Source: a virus. From it: 64,000 nucleotides of DNA. The notes under the pieces are model-generated. The model was not told the origin of the DNA. It made no database searches and saw only the letters and a program-made list of their open reading frames with translations. The position numbers and the translations under genes are program-made. The stretch lies in IMG/VR virus record IMGVR_UViG_3300046820_000298, positions 1 to 64,000 of that record. One strand, written 5' to 3'. Shown here piece by piece: positions 8,901-63,106 of the stretch. Every line of letters begins with the position of its first letter. The stretch's first letter is position 1.

Positions 8901-11900
8901 GTACAAAGACTTCATCTGACTACCACTTAGATTTACTTCTGCACCTTTGATACCTGCATTGTAAGTATAAATAGTACCGTCTTGCACGTTAGCCATCATG
9001 TTCTTCTTAATCTGACGGTTAAGAGTAACAACTGGGTTATCCTTCATCTCCGGCATAGTCTGAGGTTTTCTCAATCCTCTAGACTCGTTGATGTTAACTA
9101 CTACTTTATCAAACTCTCCAGGTCTACCTGTTACAGTGTGTACATTTCTCTTAGCTAACTTCTTACCTGATACAAAGTTTACAACATGGACTGGATCCAT
9201 ACCTGCATATACTCCTTCAGCTTCCATTCTCTGACGTAAGTCTTCTAGCTTAGGGAAGTCTTTAGTGTAAGATTTAAGAAGTACAGAGTAAGAGTTCTTT
9301 TCTGATATCGGGGTCATAGAGTTCCCAACTAACTGAAGTTTTTCAAAGTAAGTCTTTGTAGGATATACAGGGACTGCATCTCCGGCTTTGTATCCCTTAG
9401 GTACAAATCCTTGTTGATACACAAACTCTCCAGTCTGCTTGTAGCTCTTATAGGCCATCTCATCTTCCTTAGTCCACTTGCCTTCACCCTGCATCAAACT
9501 TCTATGCATTTCAAGACTGATAAATGCTTGAGCATCAGTAGAGTCGAACTTACCTGGACGGTAAGCATTAGCTATAGCTACAGCTTGGTCTAACGGTACT
9601 CCAGAAGCAACTAGTCCATCTCTCATATTATCTGCAGCTTTGTTTGCTCTCTCTGTTTGCTCAGGAGTAGCATTAAGCTTAAGGTCAGCAAGAGTGATCT
9701 CGTTATAGTTATCCATCATACCATAAGCCTCACCTGGCATCCAGTCTACTGAGCCTACGTTATCAGACTTAAGTGCATATTTAGCACCCGGAGAAGTCAA
9801 GTGACCCATACGTTTGTAGAAGTCTACAAGATCTTTTGAGTAAGCTCTAGATCCACGGAACAGTTTAACCATCTCGTTTCTCATAAGAGTTTCTTCAAAC
9901 ACAAATCCTTCAAGCATCTCATCTATCTTTAGAGCAGGCATACTTACGTTATCTATCCTGTCTAGATGAGTCTCATTATTTGTAGTTTTCTCTGACAATA
10001 TCTGCTTAAGTTTAGCAGCCTGATTCTTCATATAAGTATCAAGCTTACTAACCATTGCATCTAATCTACTGTCTATATCTTGTTGTTCTTCTTTAGACAG
10101 CTCTCCTTTTACATACTTATCTATTACTGTGCTTATAGAAGTTTTATCTATTACACCTTGAGCAGCTTTAGTAAGAGTTTGGTCTGTTACAATCTGCTGC
10201 CCATTCTCATCAAGAGCAGTGAATTGAAAGAACTTAGAATTAAAGGCTCTCCCTAAGAAGTTACCATCTTTATCTATAGTTACTCCAGTCTTTGGGTCGT
10301 TGTGATATCCATCTACTAACAGACTTCTATCTCCACTCTTCTCGGCAGCAACGACTACTCTTCTAGCCTCAGCCATACGTAAGAAGTCTTGTACAATCTG
10401 AGCTTTAATCAACTCAGCTTTACTAGTATTTTGTCTAATCTTAGTAGAAATCTTGCTAAGTCTAGGAACATTCAGTGCTGTAAACTTATCTCTATCAGCC
10501 TGTACAGATGCAAAGATTTTAGTAGTATCTGTTCTTCCTGAGTTAATCCATGCATTAAGACGTACTACATACGAATCTATCTTAGACATATCTCCGTAAG
10601 TTGTAGCATCTTCATAGTCGGCTTCTTTAATAGCATCCAAGTCCTCTAGTCTAAACTCTTTGAAGAACTCTTCATTCTGTAGAGCTCTAAACAAAATAGA
10701 CTGGAACTTAGCATTTCCGTAAGCCCCAATGAATGGGTCTTGCATGTATTTTTCAATGAATGCAGCTTTATTAGTCTTAAGGTCATTCACAATCTCTTGC
10801 ATGTGAGACTGTGTATTAGTAGCATAAACCTGAGCTCCATTTGCAGATACGTGACTTTCCCCAGCTATACTTAGTACAGGGGCAAAGTATTCTGCAAGTT
10901 TTAAAGCTACTGACTTCTTATCAACTATGAAGTTATTATTGTTTGCAGGTTTTGTACCACCTGATAAAATACCGTTAGCTAATTTGAAATCTGCAATACC
11001 TATCATCAAAGAGAACATCTCATTTTGCAATGTTTTTGCAGCAGCCTGCCCTTTAACCTTTCTAGTTCCATTTTCATCTGAAACAAAAAAGCCATTGCTA
11101 ACAATCTTGTGAATGTTATCGTAAGTATCTTGGATGTTTACATTATCCCCAACATTCAATCCCATAGACCACATCAAGTCTCCTAGTGCTTTAACAATAG
11201 GGTTAGTCACACCAGGTTCCATAGGTATATCACCAATAGGCCTTTTAGGCATAACACTTTCTAGAGCTTTAAATGCTTTTACAATCTCATCAACTCTAGA
11301 GTCAAGCCTTGTATAAGTAAGAGTAGGCTCCTCTCCTTCTTTTTCTAAAAGCTGTGGTTTGTACAGACCTCTTGAGGTAGTATCGTCAGTAGCAATTACG
11401 GCATTTCTCCAAGAGTCTACTAACTTCTCAGCTTTACCTTTTCTATTAGGATTAAAGATATCTACCTTAAGTTTATTATTAGCCTCTGAGTTACTCTTCA
11501 TGAGTACAAACTCAGTAGTAGCAAGAGCAAATGCATTATACAACATTGCTTTTTGAGGAGCATCTAATCCTTTTACGAACTCAAGTACAGGGTTAATAAT
11601 ATTTGGTTTGTAAATAGCTGCATTCTCGAGAGCAGCCATCATGTCACTGAACTTTTGTTTTCCAGTAAACACTTCTAGTAACTCTCTGTATACAACCTCT
11701 CTGTCTAGATAAGTATTTACACCAAACTTATTTACCTGTACATTTCCATTGGCATCTGGTAGGCTACTCTTAATAGTAGATAGTAGTTCTTTTACCTTAC
11801 CTGTAAGTCTCTTAGCTGGGCTTGTACCTAGCTCACTCTTACCATATATCTTTTCTATCACTCCGTCAATTGCTTCTAGTTCCTGCTCAATAGCATCCTG

Positions 11901-13133
11901 CTCATCAGTAGGTAATCCTTCATTTTGAAGTTCGTAGGAAGTTTCGTCTTTACCAGTAATTTTAAGTCCGTTATCCTGCAACTTCTCTGCAAGAATATCT
12001 CTCCATCCGTATTTATCAACATTACCAGTAACAGGATTAAGAGTTGTATTCCAAGTCTTATAGATATTAGCACAGATATTTCTCAAAGGGATGTTATCCC
12101 CAAGTGCAGGAGCAGCTCCGTATTTTGCAAATACAGTTTTGATAGTATCTAAATTCTCTTGGCTTTTATTAGCAAGATAAGCAGTTTCAGCAGCAAATAG
12201 CTCCTCTGCTTCAGCAATAGGTAAGCTGCTTCCGTCTTGTTTTTTGTAGAGTCTAGTTAACATTGCATTAGCAATATCTCCTTTATTACCCTCTACTCCC
12301 ATAGCTTTAGATACATTGAAGTTGCTACCTGCAGCTTTCTTAGTATCCATAAAGATTGTATACAGAGTATCTTTAATCTCTGTAAAGTCTTGATCAGTAT
12401 ACTCTGTACGATGCATGTAAGCAACGTCGTGTCCTTGGAACTTCTGTGGGTTTCTGAATACTCCTCTACCTGCCAAGCTCTTACCCATGTTGTTACTCTG
12501 AATCAACGAGTAAGTCTGCTTCAAACTTAGATTATCACTAATCATAGCCTTAATCCAGTTGAACAGATTCTTAAACCACTTAGCCATTTTGCCAAGTAAT
12601 CCTTTACCAGACTCTTCTTCAGTAAGCACATACTCTCTAAACTCCTCAGCCATCTTCTCTTCGAGTACTAGATTACTAGCCTCTTGCTCAGATATATTAG
12701 GGAACTGAGATAGTATGTTAGCTACTTCATCAGCAGTAGGTTCACCAAATTGTTTCTTAGCTTCCTCATACAATCCTTGTCTTTGCTCATCACTAAGCAT
12801 AGTTCTGAAAGTCATGTGGTAAGCTTCGTGGTACTCTGTACCAGATTCAGCTGCAGTCCATAGATGCATACCGGCATTATGTACATACCCGTGTACAAAT
12901 CCATCTCCTACTTGATTAGCAGTATCATAGAACTCCAAAGACATTCCAGGGAATCTCTCTGCCAACCAAGCTTTAGCAGCCGTTTTGTTTATAGTAGCCC
13001 TGATTTTACCAGCATTATTAGCTCGTTCTCTAGCATCCCAGATATAGTAAGCCGAAGCTTTACCGTACTTTTTAGATAGAGCATCAAACTCTTCTTTAAC
13101 TTGTGGATCAGATAGGTTTGGACAAAATGCCAT
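5949..13133 (-). CDS. virion-packaged DNA-dependent RNA polymerase (crAss-like, two-barrel) with N-terminal zincin-like domain
   Basis: 2394 aa. Catalytic YRIPNQ...MGSDFDVDKLF (DxDxD, about 8225-8255), plus STDAQAF and FYKRM-type conserved blocks. HEAYH...EEKMAEEF at 12816-12830. Confidence 0.9.
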   Translation of the reverse strand: MAFCPNLSDPQVKEEFDALSKKYGKASAYYIWDARERANNAGKIRATINKTAAKAWLAERFPGMSLEFYDTANQVGDGFVHGYVHNAGMHLWTAAESGTEYHEAYHMTFRTMLSDEQRQGLYEEAKKQFGEPTADEVANILSQFPNISEQEASNLVLEEKMAEEFREYVLTEEESGKGLLGKMAKWFKNLFNWIKAMISDNLSLKQTYSLIQSNNMGKSLAGRGVFRNPQKFQGHDVAYMHRTEYTDQDFTEIKDTLYTIFMDTKKAAGSNFNVSKAMGVEGNKGDIANAMLTRLYKKQDGSSLPIAEAEELFAAETAYLANKSQENLDTIKTVFAKYGAAPALGDNIPLRNICANIYKTWNTTLNPVTGNVDKYGWRDILAEKLQDNGLKITGKDETSYELQNEGLPTDEQDAIEQELEAIDGVIEKIYGKSELGTSPAKRLTGKVKELLSTIKSSLPDANGNVQVNKFGVNTYLDREVVYRELLEVFTGKQKFSDMMAALENAAIYKPNIINPVLEFVKGLDAPQKAMLYNAFALATTEFVLMKSNSEANNKLKVDIFNPNRKGKAEKLVDSWRNAVIATDDTTSRGLYKPQLLEKEGEEPTLTYTRLDSRVDEIVKAFKALESVMPKRPIGDIPMEPGVTNPIVKALGDLMWSMGLNVGDNVNIQDTYDNIHKIVSNGFFVSDENGTRKVKGQAAAKTLQNEMFSLMIGIADFKLANGILSGGTKPANNNNFIVDKKSVALKLAEYFAPVLSIAGESHVSANGAQVYATNTQSHMQEIVNDLKTNKAAFIEKYMQDPFIGAYGNAKFQSILFRALQNEEFFKEFRLEDLDAIKEADYEDATTYGDMSKIDSYVVRLNAWINSGRTDTTKIFASVQADRDKFTALNVPRLSKISTKIRQNTSKAELIKAQIVQDFLRMAEARRVVVAAEKSGDRSLLVDGYHNDPKTGVTIDKDGNFLGRAFNSKFFQFTALDENGQQIVTDQTLTKAAQGVIDKTSISTVIDKYVKGELSKEEQQDIDSRLDAMVSKLDTYMKNQAAKLKQILSEKTTNNETHLDRIDNVSMPALKIDEMLEGFVFEETLMRNEMVKLFRGSRAYSKDLVDFYKRMGHLTSPGAKYALKSDNVGSVDWMPGEAYGMMDNYNEITLADLKLNATPEQTERANKAADNMRDGLVASGVPLDQAVAIANAYRPGKFDSTDAQAFISLEMHRSLMQGEGKWTKEDEMAYKSYKQTGEFVYQQGFVPKGYKAGDAVPVYPTKTYFEKLQLVGNSMTPISEKNSYSVLLKSYTKDFPKLEDLRQRMEAEGVYAGMDPVHVVNFVSGKKLAKRNVHTVTGRPGEFDKVVVNINESRGLRKPQTMPEMKDNPVVTLNRQIKKNMMANVQDGTIYTYNAGIKGAEVNLSGSQMKSLYHAAIEEKLDRDMQDVMQELKISDLTEALGTKDPKIINEAKLEVLKNIRDIIYEQILDGDLHSNYYRALDIELDATGKPRFKVPLDLPIYNKKFESIIMSVMSNRVFKQSVKGYEAVQVAQLGGHGTDNELKFYEVANENGKQRLVHAEIMIREDLARQFGIKPGQSLDEVPEELRRIIGYRIPNQDKASTVILKIKAFLPENYAKSVVVPGQLVKLMGSDFDVDKLFLMFPEVEQDPTSKYGIKKVIPDYQRIATTPGMIQDRNAVSNKQLNNIILDTMEAVMSNPAHFTETLSPLDDTTLKSEVDRVREALPEFDTAQDWNDISTETDALIRNQAGNKLRGIYANIIAGRNVAQHGVVNLNKDFAIKIKGAEGQVTEFTEYRTYTGEGITTDKSGSLFLSASVDAGKDPIQLELNDSVITAPVRALFIAYHPDYNTATCTSLLNQPYVRRLTSILEERYGGNISQLDNAKKIVITEIRTEMAKRKTALGDKTPVETKIADVTVPMDAADLANLSKEDRDLDKQLNYVQNFILFHKAGNKLMDLYKRITPDSMDGLNRIGNIQAYNDRSENFKSAKDQETDTPEPMMFFGPDPNGDVLDQFLGRDSIYGLERGYETLKDNSLLVASYFFPMRTSSAFLTMKERIKKGAGVKRVSSSMHQMIDGNLTFLMLTKQGSPFMRYLNQNYAEAMYSNPNNNIGTRLNSLKQQFPKLAYTKFISNFETEVDPVKKYYGIKFDGSFAFSRSEREGFTATLRAMMFSPQYFLNVNPESIVIKDDVIQDPKLRSEALSIAKLGEQLAMHSFLSNGFRQGAGSYHDIIPVEFFSKPQPVDGGQKKSILEFLHDESDKLENANYFDAGDLLTYMQLFGPMKSEGRPLLERENSRTLNNKTTELTSSKNKPFLVFKNSKTKEIGTFVKIGKKADKFVYARLDSAFVGKTIYSLPDISTSDKLAKAGIAIDALSELMNDTKIPGVRDNDNLLLCNG

Positions 13134-13143
13134 TGTTTATTTT

Positions 13144-16100
13144 TTAACAGTTATTCTCAGTATTTTTTGCTTGCTCTATAAATTTGGCTGCTTCAGATGC
13201 AAGGTCTTGTATATTTTCAGGGTCACTAGGCTCTTGTCCTAATTCTGCTTGAATAGCTTTTGCTTCTTCACTTCCTGCTTTAACTTCATATTTATTAATG
13301 AAACTAGGAATTCCCGTATCAGTATTCGTAGTTATAGTAGTTTTAGGAGCTGTTGTAGGTATTCCCGTAATGTCAAAGATACCACTTGTATCCTCAGCTC
13401 CAGTTATCTGTACAACTTTTTCTTCATCAGAAACTTGTGGTTGGGAAACTTGAGGAGTTGTTTGAACAGCAGTCTTAGAAATTCCTAACAGATTTTCCAT
13501 AAGTTTAATCAGCTTTGGATCTGATTCATGCAATTCTGTAGTTTCACCAAAAGCTTCATCATACACATTGAAGTAATTTCCTTTAGGAGTAGTCTCCATT
13601 CCAGCTTCTGCAAACTCTTCAAATCCTTGGCCTATAACCATTCTATTTTCATCCGTAGCCTGGTATCTTCCAAAAGATACTGCCACTAAAGGCTCATCAG
13701 GTTCTGTAGTTGTAGATTTAATATCTTTAATTTTACCAGTTGCTAAATTATTTAAAGTTGCTTGCACTGTAGTAGCTGGTACTTGAGGTGCAGGGTTTGC
13801 ACCACGTAACTCCTCTCTTACCTCCATAAGAAGTTTAGGGAATTCAGTTCCCCACTTACCCCTATCTTGTGTATGAGTAAGAGTAGCATTACCTGTAGCA
13901 AGAAGTTTAGCTAGAGCATCTGGGTTTTGTTTGAAAGATTCTAATAATCCTTCTTTCATTATTTCACTAGCTTTACTGTCCCATTCATCTACTTTTAAAC
14001 CTTTAACGGATCTACCCATAGATTTAGCCTGAGCTCCGCTGGCACTTTGAAATTTAGCAAACAAATTTTGATCAAATGGTTCTGTAGAGAAATCCATTTT
14101 TCTTGCTTGAAAATATCCCTCTACAGTATTAAAAGGGTAACCATCAATTTTAAATGGTCTTTTAGCAAAGTTACTTAACTCAGCATTTTCTCCTGTACCA
14201 GCATAGATGTTAATCTTAGTTTCTGGTCCGATAGTAGTAGTTGGCTGAGTAGAAGCTGCAGGCTGTCCTAAAGCAGCCAACTCTGCTTTTTTCTTTTCGA
14301 TAAACTTTTTAGCAGATTCAATTTGACCTTCAAGGGATTCTTTCCTTCTAGTTAACTCTATTATATCGTTTCTAGTTAATTGAAGTTTACTTAATTTATC
14401 AATCTCGTTATTTATTTCCTTTTTACGAGTTTCGTCTTTTGTGTTTCTTAACTTTTCATACAATGCACTTAACTCAGGTTGTAAGTTATTATCAAGTCTG
14501 TTATTAACTTTTGGTAACAAATTGTTTTCAATATCTGCTATTCTGTCTACAGCTTCTTGAATTTCTTTTTCTATTACAGCCTTGCTAGTTGTAGTAGGGG
14601 CTGCACTTACAACAGGTTGAATAGGCTTAGTATCAGTAGGCATTACAACTTGCTTAGCTGCTAACTCTCTTTCAGTAGTTACATCTTGCTCTCTAGTACC
14701 TAAGTTAGTAGTCTTAATCCCCACATCAAAGAATGGAGATTTCTGTGAGTTAACTTCTACGTCAACTCCTAAGATAGCCTTAGTTCCTTTTCCTTCTGTT
14801 CTCTCTTCAAGTATTTCATTCTCAGAAGTCAAGTATTGGAAATAAGAATCATAAACCTGTCCAGTAATTGGTGATGTATATGCTTCTTTAGTCTTAAGCA
14901 AGTTTTTATCAACTTGGAATTTCTTAAGCATTATAGCTTCTTTGAACTCATTAGCTAAGTTAGCTCCTACTGATTTTCTTACAGAGTCATCTTTAGTAGC
15001 TGTTAGTAGGCCTTTAAATCCTTCTTTATTTGTACCAAGTTCTACAAAAGAGAACATAGGGGTGCCACCAGCTAGAGCTACTTTCATATTAGCAGCATTC
15101 ATTCTAACTAGTGAGTTAGCACTTGGGGAGAAGAATGTTATAAGCTCTGTACCGTTAGCAAGAGTCTCAACAAGCATAAACGATTTAGCTGTTTCTACAT
15201 CAGAGAACTCTCTCTCCATCTCACCGTTAATCTCAGTGAATACTTGGCTACCAAGATCTGGATCTACTGAGTCGTTAAGAAGGAGGTTAGTTCCTACAAT
15301 CTGTGAAAACTGGTTAAGGCTAGGTACTTCAGCTTCAATTTTAGCAAGAGCAGCTGTTCTTCCAGCCTCAGTCATGTTTCTTGTAGAAGCCATTACAACT
15401 CTTGGAGCTCCGTTAGGATCAATAACTATTATTCCTACCTGTCCTAATGTAGCATTATTAGCATCTGCAGCAAGAACTGTATCTACTAGGTTAGGTATGT
15501 TACTATCTCCAGCAGTAGCTAATTTAAAGCTTGTCTGGAAATTCTGAATACCAACAAATACAACAGCTGGTGTCTCCCCAGTATTTACTAAAGTAGATGC
15601 AGGGTAGAAGAAGCTAAATCTTTTTTGTAGACCAGTTTGTTTATCCTCGGCAAATACAATAGCATTAGAATAATTGGTACTATCGTACACCTTTCCAGCA
15701 GACATAGCTACTGGAGTAAGACCCTTCTTATAAAGGTCATAGATATCTTTTCTCATAGCCCCTTGCTCACCTGGATTATTTCCAGGAGCAAATGCCTGAA
15801 GTACACCTACAGCTTGTTCTTCACCAGCTTGATCTTTAACATACATAAAAATTGGAACAGTCATCCATTCCTCTCCTGCAGTAGGAGTTTGAGTTGCCCA
15901 CCAGTCAGTATCTTCTCTAACTTCGAATCTAACTTCTGTACCTTCTGTTGCAATGAACGGGCTAGAGGCAAGAGCAGGGTTAACTATAATTGGAACTTGC
16001 CCTACAGTTTGACTTCTGTTATTACTAGGTATAGAGGCTCCTTCTTCTGACACCAGAACCTTACCCTCCATACGAGTTTTCTCTCCTTTAGCAAGTCTAA

Positions 16101-19100
16101 CATCTAGTTGACCAGCTGTAGTCACAGTAATAGGTTGTGCAGCTACTACAGGTTGTGTGGTAGCTTGAGCTTTCTTTTTCTCCTCTTCTAGTTTACGAAG
16201 CTTCTCAGCTTCTTCTCTTTGCTGTCTAAGTTGCTTGGCTTGCTCCTCAGTTAAGATGCCATCCAACCCTTGCGTCGAAGTTCCTTCTCTAGGAGTGATA
16301 TCCTTTCCTTCAGGCTCTTGCCCTTCAGAAGAGATACCAGCTCCTTCGGCAGCGTCACGGTCTTGACGTAATTTCTCAAGTTCTCTTGCTTCATTGATGC
16401 TATTTATTTTGTTTGTACGTTTGGTAATCTTAGACTTAATAACTCCAATCTTTTTATTAACCTCTTTCAAAGATACTGTAGCAGCTGCTACATCTTGCCC
16501 TTCTCCGTATTTACCGTCTATGATATCCTGGTATCCTTTGGCAGCTTTATCAAGTGGTACAAGTTCATCTTCAAACTTTTTAATTTCTTCTTCAAGGCCA
16601 ACTTTAATTAAGTCTTCTTCAGATGGGGATAAAACATTTTCTACTTCAGCTGTAGTCTCAGTAGTGCCTAGAGCATCTTGTCTCTTAGCCTGCTTTCTTT
16701 CACGAAGAGTCTTAATCTTACTATTAAGTAGTTGAGTAATTCTCTTTTTAATAGCTCTTAATTCTTTGGTTTGAGGATCCTGGTCAAACTCTTTTTTAGT
16801 AAATCCAGCTTCCTTAGCTATCTGTTCTTCTATAGTTATAATCTGATTAACTTCTTCTAAATCAGATTTAAGAGTTTCAATCTGAGCACGGAGCTGATCA
16901 TCAGTTAGACCTGCAGTCTTGCTAAGATTGTTTTTAGCAAGCTCTCTCTCCGTCTCTGTAGATTCGTTATTCTCTTCAAACTTTTCTCTTACTGCTGCAT
17001 CTTCTTTTATAGCTTGAATCCTTGGTTCAAGTTGCTCTTTAGCTTCAGCCAATGGAATAGACTGGTCAGCTCTTATAGATGCAGCTTGCAACAGAGTCAT
17101 ATAAGCAAGACCTTCTGCAATTGCATTTTCTCTTTCAGTAACTTCTGGATTAGCAGAGTCTGCTATATCTACTGACTTCCAAGTGACTACATTACCTGTA
17201 GCCATATCAGTTACTTTAACTCCTACAATAGTTCCTAGCTCATCTCTAATTAAAGCATCAACTGGGTCGACTTCTAGGTTTGAATAGGTTCTTCCATCGA
17301 TAGTAAAGCTACTACCGTCAGAACTAACCATTATCTCCCCAAATGTTCTAGCTTCTATATCACTAAGAACTTCTTCGTATGAAGCAGTGGTTGCTGCAGT
17401 AGTAGCTGCATCCGGAGCTTCAAACCCAATATTTTTCTGGAAGTTTTTTTCAGCTTCTAGTTCATCTAGCCTTTTCTTATATCTTTTGTAAGCAGATTCT
17501 TCAATTGGAGATAGCTTCTCAGGATCAATGGCATCGAAATCTTCTTTGCTCATATTTCTGTATCCTGCTATAACTGCATCTTCTTTAGCAATAAGCTCTT
17601 CTCTCTTAACTATAGCTGCAGCAATATCCTCAGGATCTGCATTCTTAGGGAATGAGTTGTTAAGCTCTTCTACAGATTCAGAGTTGGCAACAGCTGCTTG
17701 AGCCTGTTGTTTATTTTTGTACTTATCATCTTGCTTTCTTTTAGCTACTTCAGCTTCTACAAGGAGAGCAATATCCTCTGGCTTGTCTCTTAGAGCTTGG
17801 TAACTTTGAACAGCACTTTGTCTATCCCCAATTAACTGACCTAGTTCTTGAATTTTTTTCTGAAACTGTCTTCCGTCTTCTGGGTTTAAAACACTTTTAG
17901 CTTTAAATATCTCATTAAGTTTCTCATAAAGCTTGGCATTCGGAGTAGTAGTTACCCCACTTGTAATAGATATCTCCCCTTTATCATCAACCTTTACATT
18001 ACCAGTTTTAACTATGTACTCAAAGTCTTCCTCTGGTATTGCAGATAATGCAGGGGCTAGATCACGAAGCTCTTGGTAAGTTTGCTTAATCAAATCATCG
18101 TGTGTATCCACATGTTCTAGTCTATTAAGCAGAACATTAGCATACATAGTTTTGATTGAAGTTTCTAGAGCTTTTGATTTCTTTAACTCTTCACTCTCAA
18201 ATGAATCTAGTATTCTACCGAACATTCCCATTGATGGGTTATGTGCTCTTAGTATATCTTGAACTTGCTCTTGTCTCTTAACACTTCTCTCCATCTTTGA
18301 CTTAACGTCATCGATAAGCTCTCCTTGCTCCATACCAGTTTGCTCTTTAAGAGTCCTGTTAGCTTCGTAGCCCCATCTCTTCTTAAACTCAGTTTCATCT
18401 AGTTGCTTAAGATCGTCCATCATCTCCATTGCATAGTCAAGAGCTCCAACCTTTCTGTATTGGTTAGCTACACTAGAAATAATCTTTCTACGAGCAATCT
18501 CAGCATCTTTAAAGTTGCCAGCATTGTTAGCTTCGGTCATCTCTTTTGCTAAAGCAATATTCCTATCGGATTGCTCCATGTTTTCTAAGACTTTACCGAA
18601 TGCTTCAGAGTTCATTATATCAAGAGCCTTCTTAGTATTTGCATCTTTCTGTTTAGCAAACTTACTATCAGCTCCACCAAGTCTAGAGATAGTACCTGTA
18701 CCACCACCGACTAAAGCTCCAATAAGGATACTTTCAAGTCCTTCTTTAGTCCCGATAGATTTAGATAAGCCGTTAGTAAAGGCTTCTACCATATCTCCAG
18801 TTCCATCAGCAAACTTATCTGAGTAGTAATCTTTAGAAGTTTCAGCTGTTACAAACTGTCCAGCTTCTTGAAAACCTTCAGATAATGAATTTTTTATAGG
18901 GGCACCGAATATTCTATTAGACTTAGCAAATGCTTTAGCCATTCCTTTCTCTGGAATATCTTCTACCCATTTACCTGCTACTTTCTTGATATCATACATT
19001 TGAGATTCAGCTACTGGCTTAATCCCTTTAAACATCTTAGCAAAGCTTATTGCATTTGTACCAGCAAGAAGTGGAAGGTTAACTCCAAAAGTTAAGTTAC

Positions 19101-20124
19101 CAGCTGCAGCTCCAGATTCTTCTATTCCTTTTCTTACATCATCAGGCATCTCCTGACCAGGATTAGCCTCCTCCCATTTAGCAGTTTGTTCTTCAATGAA
19201 ACCATTCTTAGCTTCTCTAGCTTCTACTGATGCTTCAGCAAGAGACATGTGTAATGCAACACTAGTATTTTTAGCAGCTGTTTTTATACCAGCTTGTCTG
19301 GCCATTTTAGCTAATCCTTGATCTATTCCCTTAGCAATATTATTAGTGTAAGGAGCACTAGCAACTTTAGCTGCATTGTAAATCTGTAATTGTTTACTTC
19401 CAAACTTAGCAGCATCTGCCCCAATATCCATTGCCTTATCAGTAGCTTTAGCAATCTTAGACATTCGTCCTAAATTACCTAACTTAGCTATCATAGCTCC
19501 TTCCCCAACACCTAACCAGGCAGTTGCAAGAGAGCCTAATGTATAACCAGCACCATTAGCAAACTTATCAGCCCAGAAATTAGCAGTGGTCATTCCTTCT
19601 AGAACTCCCATATCTTGCTCTCTCTGAGTGTAATAGTTAGGCATAGCCTCTTGAGCCCACTTGTTTATCTCATCAATAGATCTACCTACCGGATTATCAT
19701 AGTAACTGTGGTTTTCTCCAAATGCTAAGTTGAGTAATCCTCCAGCTACACCAACAGTATTTTCTGCAACAGCTCCTAATGCTGTAATTCCAGCTTTAGT
19801 TAATCCATTTGCCCATTTTTCTACAGTACCCTGGTTTTGAGCACGAGTTTCATTCCAATCTGCAAATGCATTTCGTGGAACCCCGTAGCTAGTGTAATCT
19901 TCTAGTGGGTCCGTATAAGTATTTGTTAAACTTATTGTAGCTGCATTTAAGTCAAGCCCAGAAAATCCAGTTCTTGGAGTATTCTGAGTTGGGGCAAATA
20001 CGTTTGCATCTCCTGTCTTCTTGTACATGTAAGTTGCAAACGGATCATTAGACTTCTCTTTAATGTCTTTTACTGGAAGCCCTGACTTCTTAGCAATGTA
20101 ATTTTCAAATGGATCTTCAGTCAT
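13144..20124 (-). CDS. giant virion ejection protein with internal NADAR domain
   Basis: 2326 aa with Gly/Ala-rich hydrophobic N-terminal helices and long coiled coils. NADAR motifs near the C-terminus. First of the three giant genes. Confidence 0.8.
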   Translation of the reverse strand: MTEDPFENYIAKKSGLPVKDIKEKSNDPFATYMYKKTGDANVFAPTQNTPRTGFSGLDLNAATISLTNTYTDPLEDYTSYGVPRNAFADWNETRAQNQGTVEKWANGLTKAGITALGAVAENTVGVAGGLLNLAFGENHSYYDNPVGRSIDEINKWAQEAMPNYYTQREQDMGVLEGMTTANFWADKFANGAGYTLGSLATAWLGVGEGAMIAKLGNLGRMSKIAKATDKAMDIGADAAKFGSKQLQIYNAAKVASAPYTNNIAKGIDQGLAKMARQAGIKTAAKNTSVALHMSLAEASVEAREAKNGFIEEQTAKWEEANPGQEMPDDVRKGIEESGAAAGNLTFGVNLPLLAGTNAISFAKMFKGIKPVAESQMYDIKKVAGKWVEDIPEKGMAKAFAKSNRIFGAPIKNSLSEGFQEAGQFVTAETSKDYYSDKFADGTGDMVEAFTNGLSKSIGTKEGLESILIGALVGGGTGTISRLGGADSKFAKQKDANTKKALDIMNSEAFGKVLENMEQSDRNIALAKEMTEANNAGNFKDAEIARRKIISSVANQYRKVGALDYAMEMMDDLKQLDETEFKKRWGYEANRTLKEQTGMEQGELIDDVKSKMERSVKRQEQVQDILRAHNPSMGMFGRILDSFESEELKKSKALETSIKTMYANVLLNRLEHVDTHDDLIKQTYQELRDLAPALSAIPEEDFEYIVKTGNVKVDDKGEISITSGVTTTPNAKLYEKLNEIFKAKSVLNPEDGRQFQKKIQELGQLIGDRQSAVQSYQALRDKPEDIALLVEAEVAKRKQDDKYKNKQQAQAAVANSESVEELNNSFPKNADPEDIAAAIVKREELIAKEDAVIAGYRNMSKEDFDAIDPEKLSPIEESAYKRYKKRLDELEAEKNFQKNIGFEAPDAATTAATTASYEEVLSDIEARTFGEIMVSSDGSSFTIDGRTYSNLEVDPVDALIRDELGTIVGVKVTDMATGNVVTWKSVDIADSANPEVTERENAIAEGLAYMTLLQAASIRADQSIPLAEAKEQLEPRIQAIKEDAAVREKFEENNESTETERELAKNNLSKTAGLTDDQLRAQIETLKSDLEEVNQIITIEEQIAKEAGFTKKEFDQDPQTKELRAIKKRITQLLNSKIKTLRERKQAKRQDALGTTETTAEVENVLSPSEEDLIKVGLEEEIKKFEDELVPLDKAAKGYQDIIDGKYGEGQDVAAATVSLKEVNKKIGVIKSKITKRTNKINSINEARELEKLRQDRDAAEGAGISSEGQEPEGKDITPREGTSTQGLDGILTEEQAKQLRQQREEAEKLRKLEEEKKKAQATTQPVVAAQPITVTTAGQLDVRLAKGEKTRMEGKVLVSEEGASIPSNNRSQTVGQVPIIVNPALASSPFIATEGTEVRFEVREDTDWWATQTPTAGEEWMTVPIFMYVKDQAGEEQAVGVLQAFAPGNNPGEQGAMRKDIYDLYKKGLTPVAMSAGKVYDSTNYSNAIVFAEDKQTGLQKRFSFFYPASTLVNTGETPAVVFVGIQNFQTSFKLATAGDSNIPNLVDTVLAADANNATLGQVGIIVIDPNGAPRVVMASTRNMTEAGRTAALAKIEAEVPSLNQFSQIVGTNLLLNDSVDPDLGSQVFTEINGEMEREFSDVETAKSFMLVETLANGTELITFFSPSANSLVRMNAANMKVALAGGTPMFSFVELGTNKEGFKGLLTATKDDSVRKSVGANLANEFKEAIMLKKFQVDKNLLKTKEAYTSPITGQVYDSYFQYLTSENEILEERTEGKGTKAILGVDVEVNSQKSPFFDVGIKTTNLGTREQDVTTERELAAKQVVMPTDTKPIQPVVSAAPTTTSKAVIEKEIQEAVDRIADIENNLLPKVNNRLDNNLQPELSALYEKLRNTKDETRKKEINNEIDKLSKLQLTRNDIIELTRRKESLEGQIESAKKFIEKKKAELAALGQPAASTQPTTTIGPETKINIYAGTGENAELSNFAKRPFKIDGYPFNTVEGYFQARKMDFSTEPFDQNLFAKFQSASGAQAKSMGRSVKGLKVDEWDSKASEIMKEGLLESFKQNPDALAKLLATGNATLTHTQDRGKWGTEFPKLLMEVREELRGANPAPQVPATTVQATLNNLATGKIKDIKSTTTEPDEPLVAVSFGRYQATDENRMVIGQGFEEFAEAGMETTPKGNYFNVYDEAFGETTELHESDPKLIKLMENLLGISKTAVQTTPQVSQPQVSDEEKVVQITGAEDTSGIFDITGIPTTAPKTTITTNTDTGIPSFINKYEVKAGSEEAKAIQAELGQEPSDPENIQDLASEAAKFIEQAKNTENNC
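13800..14220 (-). other. NADAR (YbiA-like) domain within the 2326-aa protein
   Basis: LSNFAKRPFKIDG-F-TVEGYFQARK...AKSMGR...W...MKEGLLESFKQNPDALAKLLATG...W...LLMEVREEL matches the NADAR family pattern. Flanked by Pro/Thr/Gln-rich linkers. Confidence 0.85.
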
Positions 20125-58035: not shown

Positions 58036-58356
58036 ATGTTCCCAATCACATCAACTAACGAGGAGAAAGTTCTCGTATCTATCAATCCAACTACTGCTGC
58101 TGGAAATCCTGCAACTGTTGACGGAGTTCCAACTTGGACTGTTGTCGAAGGTGACGCAACTGTAGAATTATCTGGTGATGGCCTTTCTGCTTACATCATC
58201 TCTGGTTCAGCTAACGTAGTTAACATGATCGAAATATCAGCTGATGCTGACCTCGATGCTGAAGAAGTTCGTACTATTACTGAAACTATCGTTTACACAG
58301 TAGTTGCTGCTGAGGCTCAAGCTCTCGGAATCAATGCTGCTGTTGAACCTAAGTAA
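58036..58356 (+). CDS. small Ig-like / beta-sandwich protein
   Basis: VSINPTTAAGNPATVDGVPTW...DGLSAYI. Acidic, with highly expressed codon usage. Confidence 0.65.
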   Translation: MFPITSTNEEKVLVSINPTTAAGNPATVDGVPTWTVVEGDATVELSGDGLSAYIISGSANVVNMIEISADADLDAEEVRTITETIVYTVVAAEAQALGINAAVEPK

Positions 58357-58368
58357 TCTTAAACTAAG

Positions 58369-58674
58369 ATGAATCTTAACGTATACTTTGACAATGCAAC
58401 TGTCTACAACTTTGAAAAACTCGACGTTAGTGTTGGGGAAAAGTTTAAAGTAGAAGCAGTTAATGCCCCTGCTGGAATTGCATGGTTCTTTGATAATGAC
58501 CCAGTTATAGAAGCTGAAACTATGGAGAATCAAGCAATCATTACAGCAGCTAAAGAAGGATTGACTAACGTGCTTTTTGTAATGAACAATAGCCAAGTTA
58601 TCCACAAGTTTACTATTAACGTAGTAAATCCCGTAAATTTGAATCCCGTAGTTCTAAACGTAGAACTAAAATAA
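58369..58674 (+). CDS. small Ig-like protein
   Basis: LDVSVGEKF...WFFDNDPVI...ITAAKEG.T.V resembles the bacterial Ig-like group 2 pattern. Confidence 0.6.
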   Translation: MNLNVYFDNATVYNFEKLDVSVGEKFKVEAVNAPAGIAWFFDNDPVIEAETMENQAIITAAKEGLTNVLFVMNNSQVIHKFTINVVNPVNLNPVVLNVELK

Positions 58675-58697
58675 ATTCCGTTCTTACCCTAAGAATT

Positions 58698-58726
58698 AGC
58701 CTCCTTAATTGGGGGCTTTTTCTTTT
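58698..58726 (+). terminator. intrinsic terminator
   Basis: AGCCTCC-TTAATT-GGGGGCT followed by TTTTCTTTT. Confidence 0.8.
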
Positions 58727-58881
58727 CCCTAAAATCCCATTATTGTATGATTTATCCGTCATTAAGCCTTAATTCCGTGGTTAATGACTGATTTATCACA
58801 CATTAAATTTTCTAGCTGGTTAAAAATTTTTTAGTTGGAAATTTTTTGAGAGTGTTGTCCTACGTATTCAAAGACCCCCAC

Positions 58882-58910
58882 TAACTTTGGCGGAGCAAAC
58901 TTCCCTCCGC
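58882..58910 (+). promoter_or_regulatory. Bacteroidota-type -7 promoter element followed by a hairpin
   Basis: TAACTTTG (58882-58889), then a GCGGAG...CTCCGC stem upstream of ATG 58921. Confidence 0.5.
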
Positions 58911-58920
58911 ATCATTTGCT

Positions 58921-59079
58921 ATGAAATCAGCATACTTGTCAGAACGTACTGGCACCCTCGTTATCACCGATCGTACTTGGACTGATGCAGGTCCATCGGA
59001 GAAGTCTTACTTCATCCGTGCTACGGACTCTGACTACCAGCAAGCCATCGACTGGGCTACATCCAAAGGACTCTTATGA
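58921..59079 (+). CDS. 52-aa hypothetical protein (not in ORF track)
   Basis: MKSAYLSERTGTLVITDRTWTDAGPSEKSYFIRATDSDYQQAIDWATSKGLL. Stop codon lies within the hairpin CCAAAGGACTC-TTAT-GAGTCCCTTTGG. Confidence 0.6.
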   Translation: MKSAYLSERTGTLVITDRTWTDAGPSEKSYFIRATDSDYQQAIDWATSKGLL

Positions 59080-59149
59080 GTCCCTTTGGGTTGTTAGCCA
59101 GAGGTTAGAATAACCACTAACTAACTAGCCAACTAACTAATAACTAATT

Positions 59150-59410
59150 GATTAGAGTCAGATGGAAGGACGAGAGTATATGTCCCAACTCATCACACTC
59201 TAATTCGTGGGGTAGAATAGTAATCACCAAATTGATTGCATCATATTCTATCCCACTTTCTCTCATTGCATTCAGTTGTAATACCTTGTGTAAGTCCTAA
59301 ACTTAATCGTTACCTATTAAGTCTTACGTAGATACTTCTCTACATTATGTAAGCAGGGTGTTTAGGGTTCTAGTGTTTAATCACAAAAGACTATTACAAC
59401 TGTTTGCTTT
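59150..59410 (+). ncRNA. candidate large structured RNA / early leader
   Basis: Three consecutive long helical domains, including 13-bp and 11-bp stems. G-U pairs favour the + strand. Confidence 0.5.
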
Positions 59411-59447
59411 CTTGTATCGTAAACAATAACTCATCAATAACACAATC

Positions 59448-59660
59448 ATGAAAAGACCATTTGATTTCCTCAAGACTATTGCTGAACTAGCAATCGTTGC
59501 TATTGTACTATTCATTGCTCCGGCAATTGTACATTCAGCAGTAACACTAGACTTTACTCATTACCTCAATGACCTATCATCTAGTGCTTACTGTGGTATC
59601 ATGTCCTTTGTATCCTTCTTCGGTACTCTATTCTTTATCGTAGTTGAAACAGAAAACTAA
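59448..59660 (+). CDS. small 2-TM membrane protein
   Basis: Two hydrophobic helices in 70 aa. Confidence 0.65.
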   Translation: MKRPFDFLKTIAELAIVAIVLFIAPAIVHSAVTLDFTHYLNDLSSSAYCGIMSFVSFFGTLFFIVVETEN

Positions 59661-59672
59661 TTCTATCACACT

Positions 59673-59873
59673 ATGAGAGAAGATAAGTACAATTTTGCAG
59701 AGACTACCACATTCTATGCACTCATTATCATTGGCATTACACTGATGATAATCTTCATGACATCTTGTAGTCAGACCCAACATGGGTTTGACTATAAGTC
59801 TCATGCTAAATCAAATGCTGAGTGGAAACACAAAGCTGAACACAACAATCTCCCAAAATGTAATCGTCATTAA
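59673..59873 (+). CDS. small putative lipoprotein
   Basis: Hydrophobic signal ending IIFMTS-C, a Bacteroidota-style lipobox. Confidence 0.6.
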   Translation: MREDKYNFAETTTFYALIIIGITLMIIFMTSCSQTQHGFDYKSHAKSNAEWKHKAEHNNLPKCNRH

Positions 59874-59874
59874 C

Positions 59875-59973
59875 ATGAATGAAACAACTAAAGACATTCT
59901 GCTATTCGTAGCAGGCTTCCTAGTATCAGCAGCAATCACAGTTATGTGGTTGGTAATAGGAGCAATTATATAG
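59875..59973 (+). CDS. 32-aa single-TM peptide
   Basis: MNETTKDILLFVAGFLVSAAITVMWLVIGAII. ATG lies 1 nt after the upstream stop. Confidence 0.6.
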   Translation: MNETTKDILLFVAGFLVSAAITVMWLVIGAII

Positions 59974-60698: not shown

Positions 60699-60716
60699 TC
60701 ATTTAGTTGAATAGTA

Positions 60717-60752
60717 AATCAGGGTGGGCTTTATAGCTCATCCTGATTTTAT
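60717..60752 (+). terminator. intrinsic terminator
   Basis: AAATCAGGGTGGGCT-TTAT-AGCTCATCCTGATTT followed by a T-rich tail. Confidence 0.8.
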
Positions 60753-60773
60753 TCTTCATTTAATTCTATTAAA

Positions 60774-60869
60774 ATGAAACTAACAACGAAGCTAGTTATA
60801 GCTCTCATTTTGTCATTAATCGTAGGGGCATCTGTCTCTATGCTATGGAGCATTGCATTCCATAACTAA
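60774..60869 (+). CDS. 31-aa single-TM peptide (not in ORF track)
   Basis: MKLTTKLVIALILSLIVGASVSMLWSIAFHN after an A-rich initiation context. Confidence 0.5.
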   Translation: MKLTTKLVIALILSLIVGASVSMLWSIAFHN

Positions 60870-61014
60870 AAACATTATCCTCTCATAGCAAATAAAAGGA
60901 AGGCAGTAGTAAGCATCAAAAGCAAGGTTTTAGAGGAGCCTTGCTGCTTATTGCTGTATAGTTACCTGCATTTTATGCAGCAATTAATCACGAAACAATT
61001 AAACTAGTATAGAA

Positions 61015-61248
61015 ATGAGTAAAACAAAATTTGTATTAGACTTAATAGAGTCTAACAGCTATCAAGCATTTGAAATACAAGCTATGATGGCAGCTGAGAA
61101 AGGAGAAAAGTTCTTTCAGTTCGGGAATGCTACGTATGACGTAGAGTTTGCCGCTAATGTAATGGTGTATATTTACCACACAATTCAAAAATCTTATGAA
61201 CAGCAGCATTTACTTCATCAGCAAGAACCAGGCACTGATACAGAGTAA
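61015..61248 (+). CDS. hypothetical protein
   Basis: 77 aa, overlapping the polA start. Confidence 0.55.
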   Translation: MSKTKFVLDLIESNSYQAFEIQAMMAAEKGEKFFQFGNATYDVEFAANVMVYIYHTIQKSYEQQHLLHQQEPGTDTE

Positions 61249-63106
61249 CTTTAACACATCAACAATCAATGAAGCAGTTGAGTATCTATCTACTAAGCTA
61301 GTATTAGGGGTAGATACAGAGACAGAAGGATTTGATTTTACATGTAAGAAGTTACTAATGCTTCAGATTGGGGATAGAGAACGTCAGTATGTAATTGATT
61401 GTAGAGATCTAAACCAAGAGGATAATGCTCAACTAAACACGGTGTTAAACGATGCTGGTATCGTCAAGATATTCCACAATGCAAAGTTTGACTACAAGTT
61501 TATCAAGCATTACCTTAGAATAGATACTGTAAACATTCATGATACATATCTATGTGAGAAAGTGTTACACTGTGGAAAGACTGATTATGGGTTTGGATTG
61601 GCTAAACTTGTTAAGAGATATCTTGATAAAGACTTAGATAAATCTGTACGTAATAGGTTTACTCAAACATCTTCTACTCCATTTACTGATGATCAGATTG
61701 TCTATGGGGCTAAAGATGTAGAGTATCTAATAGATATCTACAACAAACAGCTAGAGCTATTACCATTGCAAACTCTTTCTAATGTAGCTAGTCTAGAAAA
61801 CCAAGCGGTGATTGTATTCTCTGAGATTGAGTACAATGGACTAGAGATTAACCTCGAAGCTTGGAAGAAGTTAGCTGATAGAAACAAAGCAGAAAGCACT
61901 ACTTTAGAAAAGCAATTAGATAATCTGTTGCTATCCTATCCAGAGTTCAGTAAGTATAAGGCTAAGAAGCAATTAGATCTATTCCTAATGGAAGAAGAAC
62001 TAAAAGATTCAACTGTTAATTGGGATAGCCCAAGTCAAGTGCTTAAGATATTCCAGACTCTATTCCCTAAGATTGAGGATGTGAATGGTAAGAAGCTAGC
62101 ACCTTACAAGTACAAGCATAAGCTTATCGAAGAGTACATTAAGTACAAAGAGAAAAGCAAACTAGCATCAGCATTTGGGCAGAACTTCAATAGCTTTATT
62201 AGCTGTGATAATAAAGTGCATACTAACTTTCAACAGATACTAGACACTGGACGTGTATCATCTAGTGAACCTAATATGCAGCAAATCCCAGCAACTAATG
62301 AGTATCGTAATTGCTTTGTTGCTCCACATGGATGGGTGTTTGTATCTTCTGACTATAGCTCACAAGAGTTAAACGTAATTGCATACGGAAGTCAAGACCC
62401 TGTGTTCTTATCAGCTCTTAGAAACAATGAAGACTTGCACTCAGTATGTGCTGAGTTAGTATTTGCTGATGTGTGGAGAAATGCATCTGAGCATGATTGT
62501 GCTTACATGAAAGCTAAAGAGAAGTGTGAGTGTAAAGAACACAAGAAACTTAGGACACAGGTTAAGACAATCAACTTTGGATTGGCTTATGGAATGGGTC
62601 CTAAGAAGTTATCTGAGACTATTAACTCTACACTTGCTGAAGCTAAACAATTGATTGATAAGTATTTCAAAGCTTTCCCTAAGATTAAAAGATTTCTTGA
62701 TGATCAGGGAGAATTTGGGAAGAGGTACGGGTATGTGACTACGTTCTATCCTTTCTATAGGAAGAGATGGTTTGATAACTGGACCCCTAAAATGTACAAT
62801 GATAGTGACAGCTTTATGGAGCTGGGTTCTATCGAGAGAGCATCAAAGAATACCCCAATTCAAGGTAGTTCAGCTGATATGACAAAGCTAGCATTAGTTT
62901 ATCTTCACAGACGAATCAAGAAGCATGGCTATCCAGTTAAGATAGTAATGACTGTTCATGATCAGATAGATACCATTTGCCCAGAGGAATTTGCAGATGA
63001 GTGGAAACTATACATGACTGAGGAGATGGAGAGAGCAGCTAGTAAGGTAATCAGAAATGGGTTATTAAAAGCAGACACATCAATAACTAAAGTATGGAGT
63101 AAGTAA
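61196..63106 (+). CDS. polA: DNA polymerase family A with 3'-5' exonuclease
   Basis: Exo I GVDTET, Exo II HNAKFD, Exo III YGAKD. TGRVSSSEPNMQQIP, motif A DYSSQEL, motif B RTQVKTINFGLAYG, motif C VHDQI. Confidence 0.93.
   Translation: MNSSIYFISKNQALIQSNFNTSTINEAVEYLSTKLVLGVDTETEGFDFTCKKLLMLQIGDRERQYVIDCRDLNQEDNAQLNTVLNDAGIVKIFHNAKFDYKFIKHYLRIDTVNIHDTYLCEKVLHCGKTDYGFGLAKLVKRYLDKDLDKSVRNRFTQTSSTPFTDDQIVYGAKDVEYLIDIYNKQLELLPLQTLSNVASLENQAVIVFSEIEYNGLEINLEAWKKLADRNKAESTTLEKQLDNLLLSYPEFSKYKAKKQLDLFLMEEELKDSTVNWDSPSQVLKIFQTLFPKIEDVNGKKLAPYKYKHKLIEEYIKYKEKSKLASAFGQNFNSFISCDNKVHTNFQQILDTGRVSSSEPNMQQIPATNEYRNCFVAPHGWVFVSSDYSSQELNVIAYGSQDPVFLSALRNNEDLHSVCAELVFADVWRNASEHDCAYMKAKEKCECKEHKKLRTQVKTINFGLAYGMGPKKLSETINSTLAEAKQLIDKYFKAFPKIKRFLDDQGEFGKRYGYVTTFYPFYRKRWFDNWTPKMYNDSDSFMELGSIERASKNTPIQGSSADMTKLALVYLHRRIKKHGYPVKIVMTVHDQIDTICPEEFADEWKLYMTEEMERAASKVIRNGLLKADTSITKVWSK

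Follow-up and report, generated by a model that had tools for sequence, protein, structure and literature searches.

A putative mosaic leader RNA with a conserved two-hairpin motif and a core-less twister-like arm in an uncultured freshwater crAss-like phage

Few viruses are known to be more abundant than the crAss-like phages, and the start, punctuation and processing of their early transcription are poorly settled. Structured leader RNAs that lie after an early promoter and before internal terminators are represented by HK022 put, Bacillus EAR and Tn916 canT; put RNA has a two-stem-loop architecture. The twister ribozyme was reportedly described by Roth et al. 2014. Its scheme, as laid out in the accessible part of one source (PMC5408937), comprises P1, P2 and P4, T1 and T2, a U-A site and an optional P5. 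Closest in setting is phage phi14:2: the available sections of its study (10.1101/2020.03.07.982082) report that the g004-g005 and g005-g006 regions are transcribed rightward, early, very abundantly and persistently as non-coding RNAs, and that the early transcripts have no common motif upstream. Here we describe a chain of predicted hairpins at positions 59063-59410 of IMG/VR record IMGVR_UViG_3300046820_000298, whose first 64 kb (64,000 nucleotides, nt) form the window analysed. The chain is probably a mosaic early-type leader or intercistronic RNA, made of independent modules between genes for proteins of 52 and 70 amino acids (aa).

The complete record is 81,151 bp long, with 38% G+C and a 65-bp terminal repeat. 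Its leftward genes, giant open reading frames (ORFs) among them, occupy 1241-57253, and its rightward genes run from 58036 onward. In a 2394-aa ORF (5949-13133, minus strand), DFDVD occurs at residue 1631; the ORF matches the structure of the phi14:2 virion RNA polymerase (6VR4, E 3.3e-17). The family-A DNA polymerase encoded at 61196-63106 is 27-29% identical to the enzymes of named crAss-like phages, and every run containing the stretch is a metagenome from freshwater, a lake or plankton. From these two polymerases and the origin of the runs, the source is an uncultured freshwater crAss-like phage. The hairpins sit 1 kb inside the rightward, replication/early-type block. Their placement ahead of early genes by a first-pass annotation, made from the letters alone, is thereby borne out: they stand at the head of that block, in a phage whose virion RNA polymerase is of the crAss type. 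No tRNA or tmRNA was found in a search for known RNA genes, and blastn of 58700-59900 against 50,697 phage records returned zero matches.

Like the phi14:2 regions, the locus is a gene-free stretch that heads rightward early genes in a phage encoding a virion RNA polymerase of crAss type. The two differ in that they share no sequence (best E 0.24) and that phi14:2 has neither a match to the covariance model described below nor a twister-like core. The put, EAR and canT leaders likewise show no homology to the hairpins here. The modules that carry the argument are as follows.

59063-59089, plus strand: H1, an 11-bp hairpin with one bulged C, arms CCAAAGGACTC (59063-73) and GAGTCCCTTTGG (59078-89), spanning a stop codon
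59151-59204, plus strand: H3, a hairpin of three tiers (outer, middle and inner stem), arms ATTAGAGT (59151-58) and ACTCTAAT (59197-204)
59207-59256, plus strand: H4, a hairpin with a 13-bp stem, arms GTGGGGTAGAATA (59207-19) and TATTCTATCCCAC (59244-56), and top stem GTAATCA/TGATTGC
59273-59402, plus strand: the former 'multi-way junction', here a core-less P5-type arm, with an 11-bp helix CAGTTGTAATA (59273-83) / TATTACAACTG (59392-402) around a 108-nt insert

All stems listed in the first-pass annotation are present where it had placed them, and the 348-nt stretch folds far below shuffled sequence. Its minimum free energy (MFE) is -107.4 kcal/mol on the plus strand, against -72.3 +/- 4.6 in 100 dinucleotide shuffles (z -7.65, none of the 100 equal); two coding controls of equal length gave z -0.29 and -1.91. 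The signal is modular, a chain of separate modules and not a single fold. Folded alone, 59063-59147 (H1 and its neighbours) gives z -4.19, and H3+H4 (59148-59260) gives z -6.64 on the plus and -4.06 on the minus strand (MFE -43.2 against -36.2 kcal/mol). The junction reaches only z -2.17, with 6 of 200 shuffles equal or better. The idea of one large non-coding RNA must therefore be given up: the stretch splits into independent folds, and relatives retain H3+H4 and exchange everything downstream. Nor does a multi-way junction survive, since its interior (59284-59391) is at chance (z +0.36; 124 of 200 shuffles equal or better) and only the 11-bp closing helix stands out. Mismatches had also been described as consistently G-U. 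This is correct for H4, with one G.U in the 13-bp stem and one U.G in the inner stem, but cannot be generalised: every pair of H1 and of the 11-bp helix is Watson-Crick.

The two adjacent hairpins H3 and H4 form the most informative module. The inner stems of H3 are GATG/CATC and GGAC/GTCC, and a conserved CCAAY is unpaired on its 3' side. H4 has an invariant GUG...CAC base, a conserved 3' bulge of 4-5 nt, a top stem of 6-7 bp and an A-rich loop; the gap between the hairpins is 0-1 nt in most homologs. An initial sequence search found 59151-59256 in five relatives (L028, L002, L005, L008 and L013; L numbers denote loci, 80 of which are related loci fetched through their DNA polymerase). A covariance model, R1, built from six H3+H4 sequences, gave 11 plus-strand matches at E<=1e-10 (64-115 bits; 100 sources, 1.06 Mb), and at most about 20 bits on the minus strand. 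Another 26 sources added 3 matches, bringing the set to 11 distinct sequences. R1 had no match in phi14:2, in other twister-bearing phages or in the contigs of metagenome-assembled genomes (MAGs). A strict pattern scan of all IMG/VR recovered H3+H4 in 11 contigs, 8 of them already among the loci gathered. The motif, single copy in the phage genome, thus appears to be confined to this clade of related freshwater crAss-like phages.

The pairs of H3+H4 are held by compensatory changes, as the covariation check over nine distinct sequences confirmed. In the nine-row alignment, which comprises related sequences and was fitted to a model from six of its rows, 96.3% of cells are paired against 73.5% after shuffling (0/500 as high), and both partners vary in 13 of the 24 pairs. 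The score for covariation, 0.575, exceeds the 0.163 of shuffles (0/500) and falls to 0.074 or less when partners are slid by 1-3 columns. Ten of the 20 pairs of H4 show changes on both sides, and one G.U is kept in 9/9 rows; three of the four pairs of the H3 inner stem carry double changes. The 3' positions of the H3 middle stem are paired in the own folds of 11/11 distinct homologs, with 2-3 pair types per position, and CCAAY is unpaired in 8 of these 11 folds. CCAAY, the rest of H3 and the whole of H4 together span exactly 72 nt in 12/12 loci. The order of elements in these loci is constant: the promoter-like element described below, then H3+H4, then, in 5/12, a twister-like core.

Selection at the RNA level, which the first-pass annotation had proposed from its G-U pairs, finds support on other grounds as well. 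Besides the compensatory changes, the invariant G.U would be a C-A mismatch on the opposite strand, the plus-strand fold of H3+H4 is 7 kcal/mol better than the minus-strand fold, and a pair change in H1 relative to L028 preserves pairing. These observations support selection on a single-stranded plus-strand molecule, most simply RNA. H3+H4 is, as judged from comparative sequence data, an uncatalogued, conserved and strand-specific structured RNA motif that has no Rfam match.

Downstream of H4 the leader is exchanged between relatives. Up to the end of H4, starting at the promoter-like element, L028 has 82-91% identity; it is then unrelated until a shared 5' untranslated region (UTR); its counterpart of the stretch is likewise structured (z -6.84 as a whole). 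A contig from run X4 has the junction of the window, with 9 differences over 59196-59414, followed by L028-type sequence, and it is the only other place where the window's own insert was found. The junction is therefore polymorphic, present or absent, among close relatives. Searches for the insert gave 0 matches for an exact 25-mer in IMG/VR, 0 each for a 24-mer and for a two-anchor pattern in Joint Genome Institute (JGI) metagenome contigs, and none at E<=0.1 by blastn against 133 loci.

The helix that closes the junction belongs to a larger family. Its two 11-mers, with a gap of 95-125 nt, occur in 34 other IMG/VR contigs, where we estimate that fewer than one would be expected by chance. 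In most elements of the family the order is TAATGCACC, a 5-bp hairpin capped by TTCCCAAGG, the 11-bp helix, the insert and then AGTGCAGAGGG. Among 31 distinct core-bearing elements the 5-bp hairpin, P4, is wholly paired in 31/31, with 14 arm combinations, and its 3' arm lies 12-259 nt from AGTGCA. The 11-bp helix is identical in 19 of the 31, a count biased by the fact that 34 loci had been fetched with this helix. By eye, the inserts of 35 other elements fall into about 20 unrelated groups. They are generally unstructured (mean z -0.51, n=27, with 4/27 below -2), and the window's own insert has z +0.16.

The family resembles twister in several respects, judged against the accessible parts of the twister literature: a U-A step before AAUGC, a P2 of GCAC/GUGC, a variable stem at the P5 position and a covarying 5-bp P4 whose loop carries UCCCAAG, as in rice twister (PMC11662667). 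A 3' GAGGG can pair with the CCC of this loop in a T1-like manner. It departs from twister in that the predicted T2 partners would be CC/GG where twister conserves GC, in a P1 that is short or missing and in P5 inserts that reach 259 nt. Rfam twister models did not match the family at the gathering score in 10 loci. Because the loop heptamer and the layout fit, yet the Rfam models are unmatched, we call the family twister-like; its cleavage is predicted only. No paper title that we saw concerned twister-type elements in crAss-like leaders, a weak statement since it was judged on titles. Twister-like cores occur in the leaders of relatives L008, L009, L011, L012, L016, L018, L020 and L044, that of L008 (3363-3484) lying directly ahead of the homolog of the 70-aa gene. 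A regular-expression core hit in L041 looks spurious and was set aside.

In the window the core is gone. No TAATGYAYC-type core was found in the 81-kb genome (regular expression, one substitution per motif). The 5' flank of the 11-bp helix is CTCTCATTGCATT, with no U-A step or L1 nucleotides; there is no P4 hairpin with a UCCCAAG loop between H4 and the helix, where relatives have it; and the 3' flank is TTTGCTTTCTTG in place of AGTGCAGAGGG, with neither the T1 partner GGG nor the catalytic G. Of P2, only GCA (59268-70) and TGC (59405-07) pair in the minimum-energy fold, and the flanks CATTGCATT and TTTGCTTT may be remnants of its strands. Without U-A/L1, P4/L4 and the T1 partner the element cannot be a ribozyme. 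The optional P5 stem-loop of twister is present as the 11-bp base helix, which agrees with the family P5 helix at 22/22 positions. The junction thus appears to be what remains of a twister-like element, its P5-type arm, with the catalytic core missing. Its stems are accounted for by a repeat-like family, which the first-pass annotation had named as a refuting outcome; the family is one of twister-like RNAs and not a miniature inverted-repeat transposable element (MITE). A second core-less arm, in L002, has its outermost pair changed from C-G to A-T with pairing kept, and at least five more occur in other phages (by eye). That the helix is intact at all 22 positions beside an erased core suggests that it is selected for itself.

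Several variants of the family were noted by the way. In L095:1287-1413, L084:10745-10870, L096:2355-2481 and L110:569-695 the P4 loop has only 2-3 nt and lacks CCCAAG; an upstream CCC pairs with the 3' GGG, giving a plain three-way junction without a pseudoknot (by eye). A second variant (L083:7392-7678, L088, L094 and L114) has a longer 5' part, AAGATGTGAAACCACACTGATTAG ... CTAATCAG, ahead of the CCCAAG loop. The leader of L044 holds three twister-like cores (2809-2895, 3007-3124 and 4922-4979), the last a 58-nt minimal form. The twister-like 5' core pattern is also present in seven contigs of the GTDB species set (L130-L136), all from MAGs, including lake Chitinophagaceae and Sediminibacterium; these are possibly host clues or mis-binned phage contigs. 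For the 11-bp inverted repeat, retron, integron attC, CRISPR-repeat and inverton readings were considered, on consensus features only, and dropped. Beside the 34 loci there is no recurrent cluster of reverse transcriptase, integrase, Cas or recombinase proteins, and the insert is always in one orientation relative to its flanks.

The remaining features of the neighbourhood are listed below in order.

58698-58725, plus strand: intrinsic terminator, stem AGCCTCC/GGGGGCT (58698-58717) followed by the T run TTTTCTTTTC
58805-58905, plus strand: promoter-like element of about 100 bp, conserved clade-wide in primary sequence, single copy
58921-59079, plus strand: 52-aa ORF, with its stop codon TGA (59077-79) inside the loop and 3' arm of H1
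59103-59115, plus strand: H2, a small, weak hairpin GGTTA-GAA-TAACC, unused in the minimum-energy fold and partly kept in L028
59116-59147, plus strand: CUAA-rich linker of A, C and U only, mostly without structure of its own; relatives have similar A/U-rich spacers before H3
59403-59447, plus strand: conserved 5' UTR of the next gene (CTTGTA...AATAAC...), common to L028, L002, L005 and L008
59448-59660, plus strand: gene for a 70-aa predicted membrane protein, the first after the leader, with homologs in 12/80 loci and no Pfam or PHROG family

The terminator closes a unit of two small genes (58036-58674), and a new transcription unit must therefore begin downstream of it. The promoter-like element, about 300 nt 5' of H3+H4 in this phage, is a candidate for that start. 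It consists of an A/T tract, TTTTTTGAGAGTG-N4-CCTAC-N-TTCAAAGACCCCC, a TAACTTTG box and a variable hairpin GCGGAG/CTCCGC; a TANNTTTG match lies within it at 58882-58889. With nhmmer it is matched in 40/80 related loci at E<=0.42, 28 of these at E<0.01, including phages whose DNA polymerase is only about 56% identical. It is the best-conserved non-coding piece of the neighbourhood, better kept than the flanking small genes, and occurs once in the 81-kb genome. RNAalifold on 31 aligned copies gave 0 consensus pairs, so it is the primary sequence that is conserved. The TAACTTTG box has the shape of the Bacteroidota -7 element. In 11/12 loci the element is found 277-527 nt upstream of the CCAAY of H3; the twelfth locus ends at a contig edge. 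These properties suit a DNA site. The simplest reading is a promoter, from which the hairpin-bearing transcript would start; the element is a candidate for the sole early promoter or for another DNA site such as an origin.

Between this element and the hairpins, the 52-aa ORF is probably a real small gene. It has a tblastn match in 1/80 loci at E<=1e-3 (L028, 83% aa identity, mainly conservative changes) and a C-terminal homolog in L009 (by eye), and 9 of the 18 listed differences from a related contig fall at third codon positions (manual count). H1, which closes it, is terminator-like without a U tract; its inner stem was picked in a terminator scan with the tail CTTTGGGTTG. In L028 the coding arm differs by a synonymous C>T (codon TCC/TCT), and a compensatory G>A stands opposite it in the non-coding arm. 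The counterpart of H1 in L009 has equal shape and other sequence (by eye).

We consider it rather probable that these pieces make up a mosaic leader, in the order promoter-like element, small gene, H1, CUAA-rich spacer, H3+H4, a lineage-variable set and the next gene's 5' UTR. In this best-supported reading three elements, H1, H3+H4 and the P5-type helix, are under selection on the plus strand, where compensatory changes keep each of them. The modules may act in cis on the RNA and control its processing, stability or read-through. H1 and H4 could serve as 3'-end or read-through control points, and H3+H4 as a polymerase- or protein-contacting domain or as a stable RNA end. Where relatives carry a twister-like unit, its cut would sever the RNA of the small gene and H3+H4 from the mRNA behind it, whose 5' end would then bear the folded element. 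A 5'-OH end may stabilise RNA. In this phage the cut would have been lost, and the conserved helix with its cargo remains, suggesting a use of its own for the helix.

A number of observations weigh against this proposal. The minus strand of the stretch is likewise well folded (z -6.24), which is unavoidable for a set of inverted repeats, and the fitting of the covariation alignment to a model from most of its own, related rows favours structure. Strongly folded spacers are nothing rare in this genome: z is -6.59 for spacer 60699-61195, and when all 200-nt windows were compared in a crude scan regressed on GC, 59051-59250 ranked only 17th on the plus strand. Strong folding by itself therefore says little about special function. 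A terminator role of H4 is not general, because the sequence after it, CUUUCUCUC here, is the U-poor CUAUCUUAC in L016 and CUAAUCUUAU in L018. On the minimal twister-like forms of 53-58 nt (L012:3239-3291 and L044:4922-4979), Rfam gave no twister match even at E<=10. Structure of this degree is absent from the phi14:2 regions (z -0.32 and -1.22, 20 shuffles each), and the analogy with them is positional only. Finally, among the runs holding the stretch none is recorded as RNA, and two labelled RNA-Seq (X23 and X24) were judged to be probably DNA. In run X24 the word depths are 155-289 over the promoter-like element, the 52-aa ORF and H3+H4, against 4.4 over the 70-aa gene; contig depth cannot rank these parts, conserved pieces merge several strains, and nothing was inferred from it.

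Spacer 60699-61195 itself contains a 15-bp terminator-like hairpin (60716-60749) and a second one (60921-60945) directly before the DNA polymerase gene. Rfam gave 0 matches at the gathering score across the 64-kb window. At E<=10, matches in 58600-59500 were at chance level, the one within the stretch being Ocean-V with 18.8 bits against a gathering score of 75.

One competing account is ordinary punctuation, in which the hairpins are terminators and RNase-protective stem-loops between short early units, next to decaying ribozyme remains. The terminator scan does pick H1, other spacers of the block are equally structured, the junction interior is at chance, P5 inserts are generally unstructured and the ribozyme core is gone. 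We nevertheless regard this account as unlikely, for terminators do not hold a 72-nt geometry, an unpaired CCAAY and a G.U across phages with about 65%-identical DNA polymerases. H1, H4 (in L016 and L018) and the junction lack a U tract, and the 11-bp helix is kept at 22/22 positions despite the erased core, with a compensatory change in L002. Another account makes H3+H4 a cis-acting processive antiterminator of the put, EAR or canT kind, which would carry the host or virion polymerase through downstream terminators. It would explain why the motif is single copy and placed 277-527 nt behind the sole clade-conserved promoter-like element and ahead of the rightward block; the adjacent stems, rigid 72 nt, unpaired CCAAY, bulge and invariant G.U could be a protein-contact surface, and same-strand terminator-like hairpins do follow (59973-85, 60716-49 with 15 bp and a T-rich tail, and 60921-45). 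Yet neither sequence nor Rfam relates it to known antiterminators, and the downstream genes may have separate promoters beyond the terminators; we think this account quite unlikely. RNA-only antiterminators are known in phages and mobile elements (PMC11658703); the part of PMC4496710 consulted makes no mention of put RNA.

A DNA-level account seems very improbable to us. It takes the junction for a MITE-like element bounded by 11-bp terminal inverted repeats, and the remaining hairpins for single-stranded DNA promoters of the virion RNA polymerase or for replication or cruciform sites. The inverted repeat is perfect, it is present or absent among close relatives, the same termini occur in many phage genomes, and a doubtful CTTTCT may flank it on both sides (59256-61 and 59408-13, by eye). 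Against this, there is one copy in the genome and the interiors are unrelated between groups, when a MITE burst leaves near-identical copies. No transposase or other protein is shared, the commonest neighbour cluster occurring in 7/34 loci. In a crude census, 32 of 65 arms stand in fixed orientation inside a conserved, covarying, strand-specific core, which argues for an RNA helix rather than transposon ends. G.U pairs, asymmetric bulges and the 7 kcal/mol strand asymmetry speak against cruciforms. N4 promoters have short stems of 5-7 bp, 3-nt loops and a conserved spacing from the start site, in several copies before the early genes. An N4-type hairpin promoter, which the first-pass annotation had offered as an alternative, fits poorly: the stems here have 11-20 bp with bulges, the loops 4-10 nt, G.U pairs are present and H3+H4 is single copy. 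In the available sections of the phi14:2 study, purified virion RNA polymerase transcribed denatured phage DNA in vitro, and its early transcripts, as said above, have no common upstream motif (10.1101/2020.03.07.982082).

An extension of the mosaic-leader reading is more speculative, and we hold it to be improbable as a whole. H3+H4 would be a new class of leader RNA, with put-like polymerase binding or as an abundant early small RNA, and the CAGUUGUAAUA helix a docking or processing signal with swappable cargo; this invariant 11-bp helix would work with or without the twister-like cutter. If that were true, lake phages would run a modular system of RNA cassettes in their early leaders. The novel points of this locus are the H3+H4 motif, a P5 arm that lacks its core and a promoter-like element present in one copy. 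They give three handles on the system: the promoter-like element, a rigid and covarying two-hairpin motif and a natural core-less copy of a twister-like element, in which the role of the P5 helix with its cargo can be considered apart from self-cleavage.

Three minor observations concern other parts of these genomes. The second non-coding region of phi14:2 (3911-4601) contains, at L082:4440-4480, a tRNA-like T-arm/acceptor end, GGGGGUUCGAAUCCCCC (by eye). In two phages that also have twister-like elements, tRNA matches carry insertions of 43 and 65 nt (L089:3121-3230 and L116:9391-9513, respectively). In the present phage, the 2326-aa giant protein adjoining the virion RNA polymerase (13144-20124, minus strand) has a NADAR/YbiA-like domain at residues 1965-2093, with matches to PDB 2b3w (E 3.7e-12) and 8bau (E 6.3e-06).

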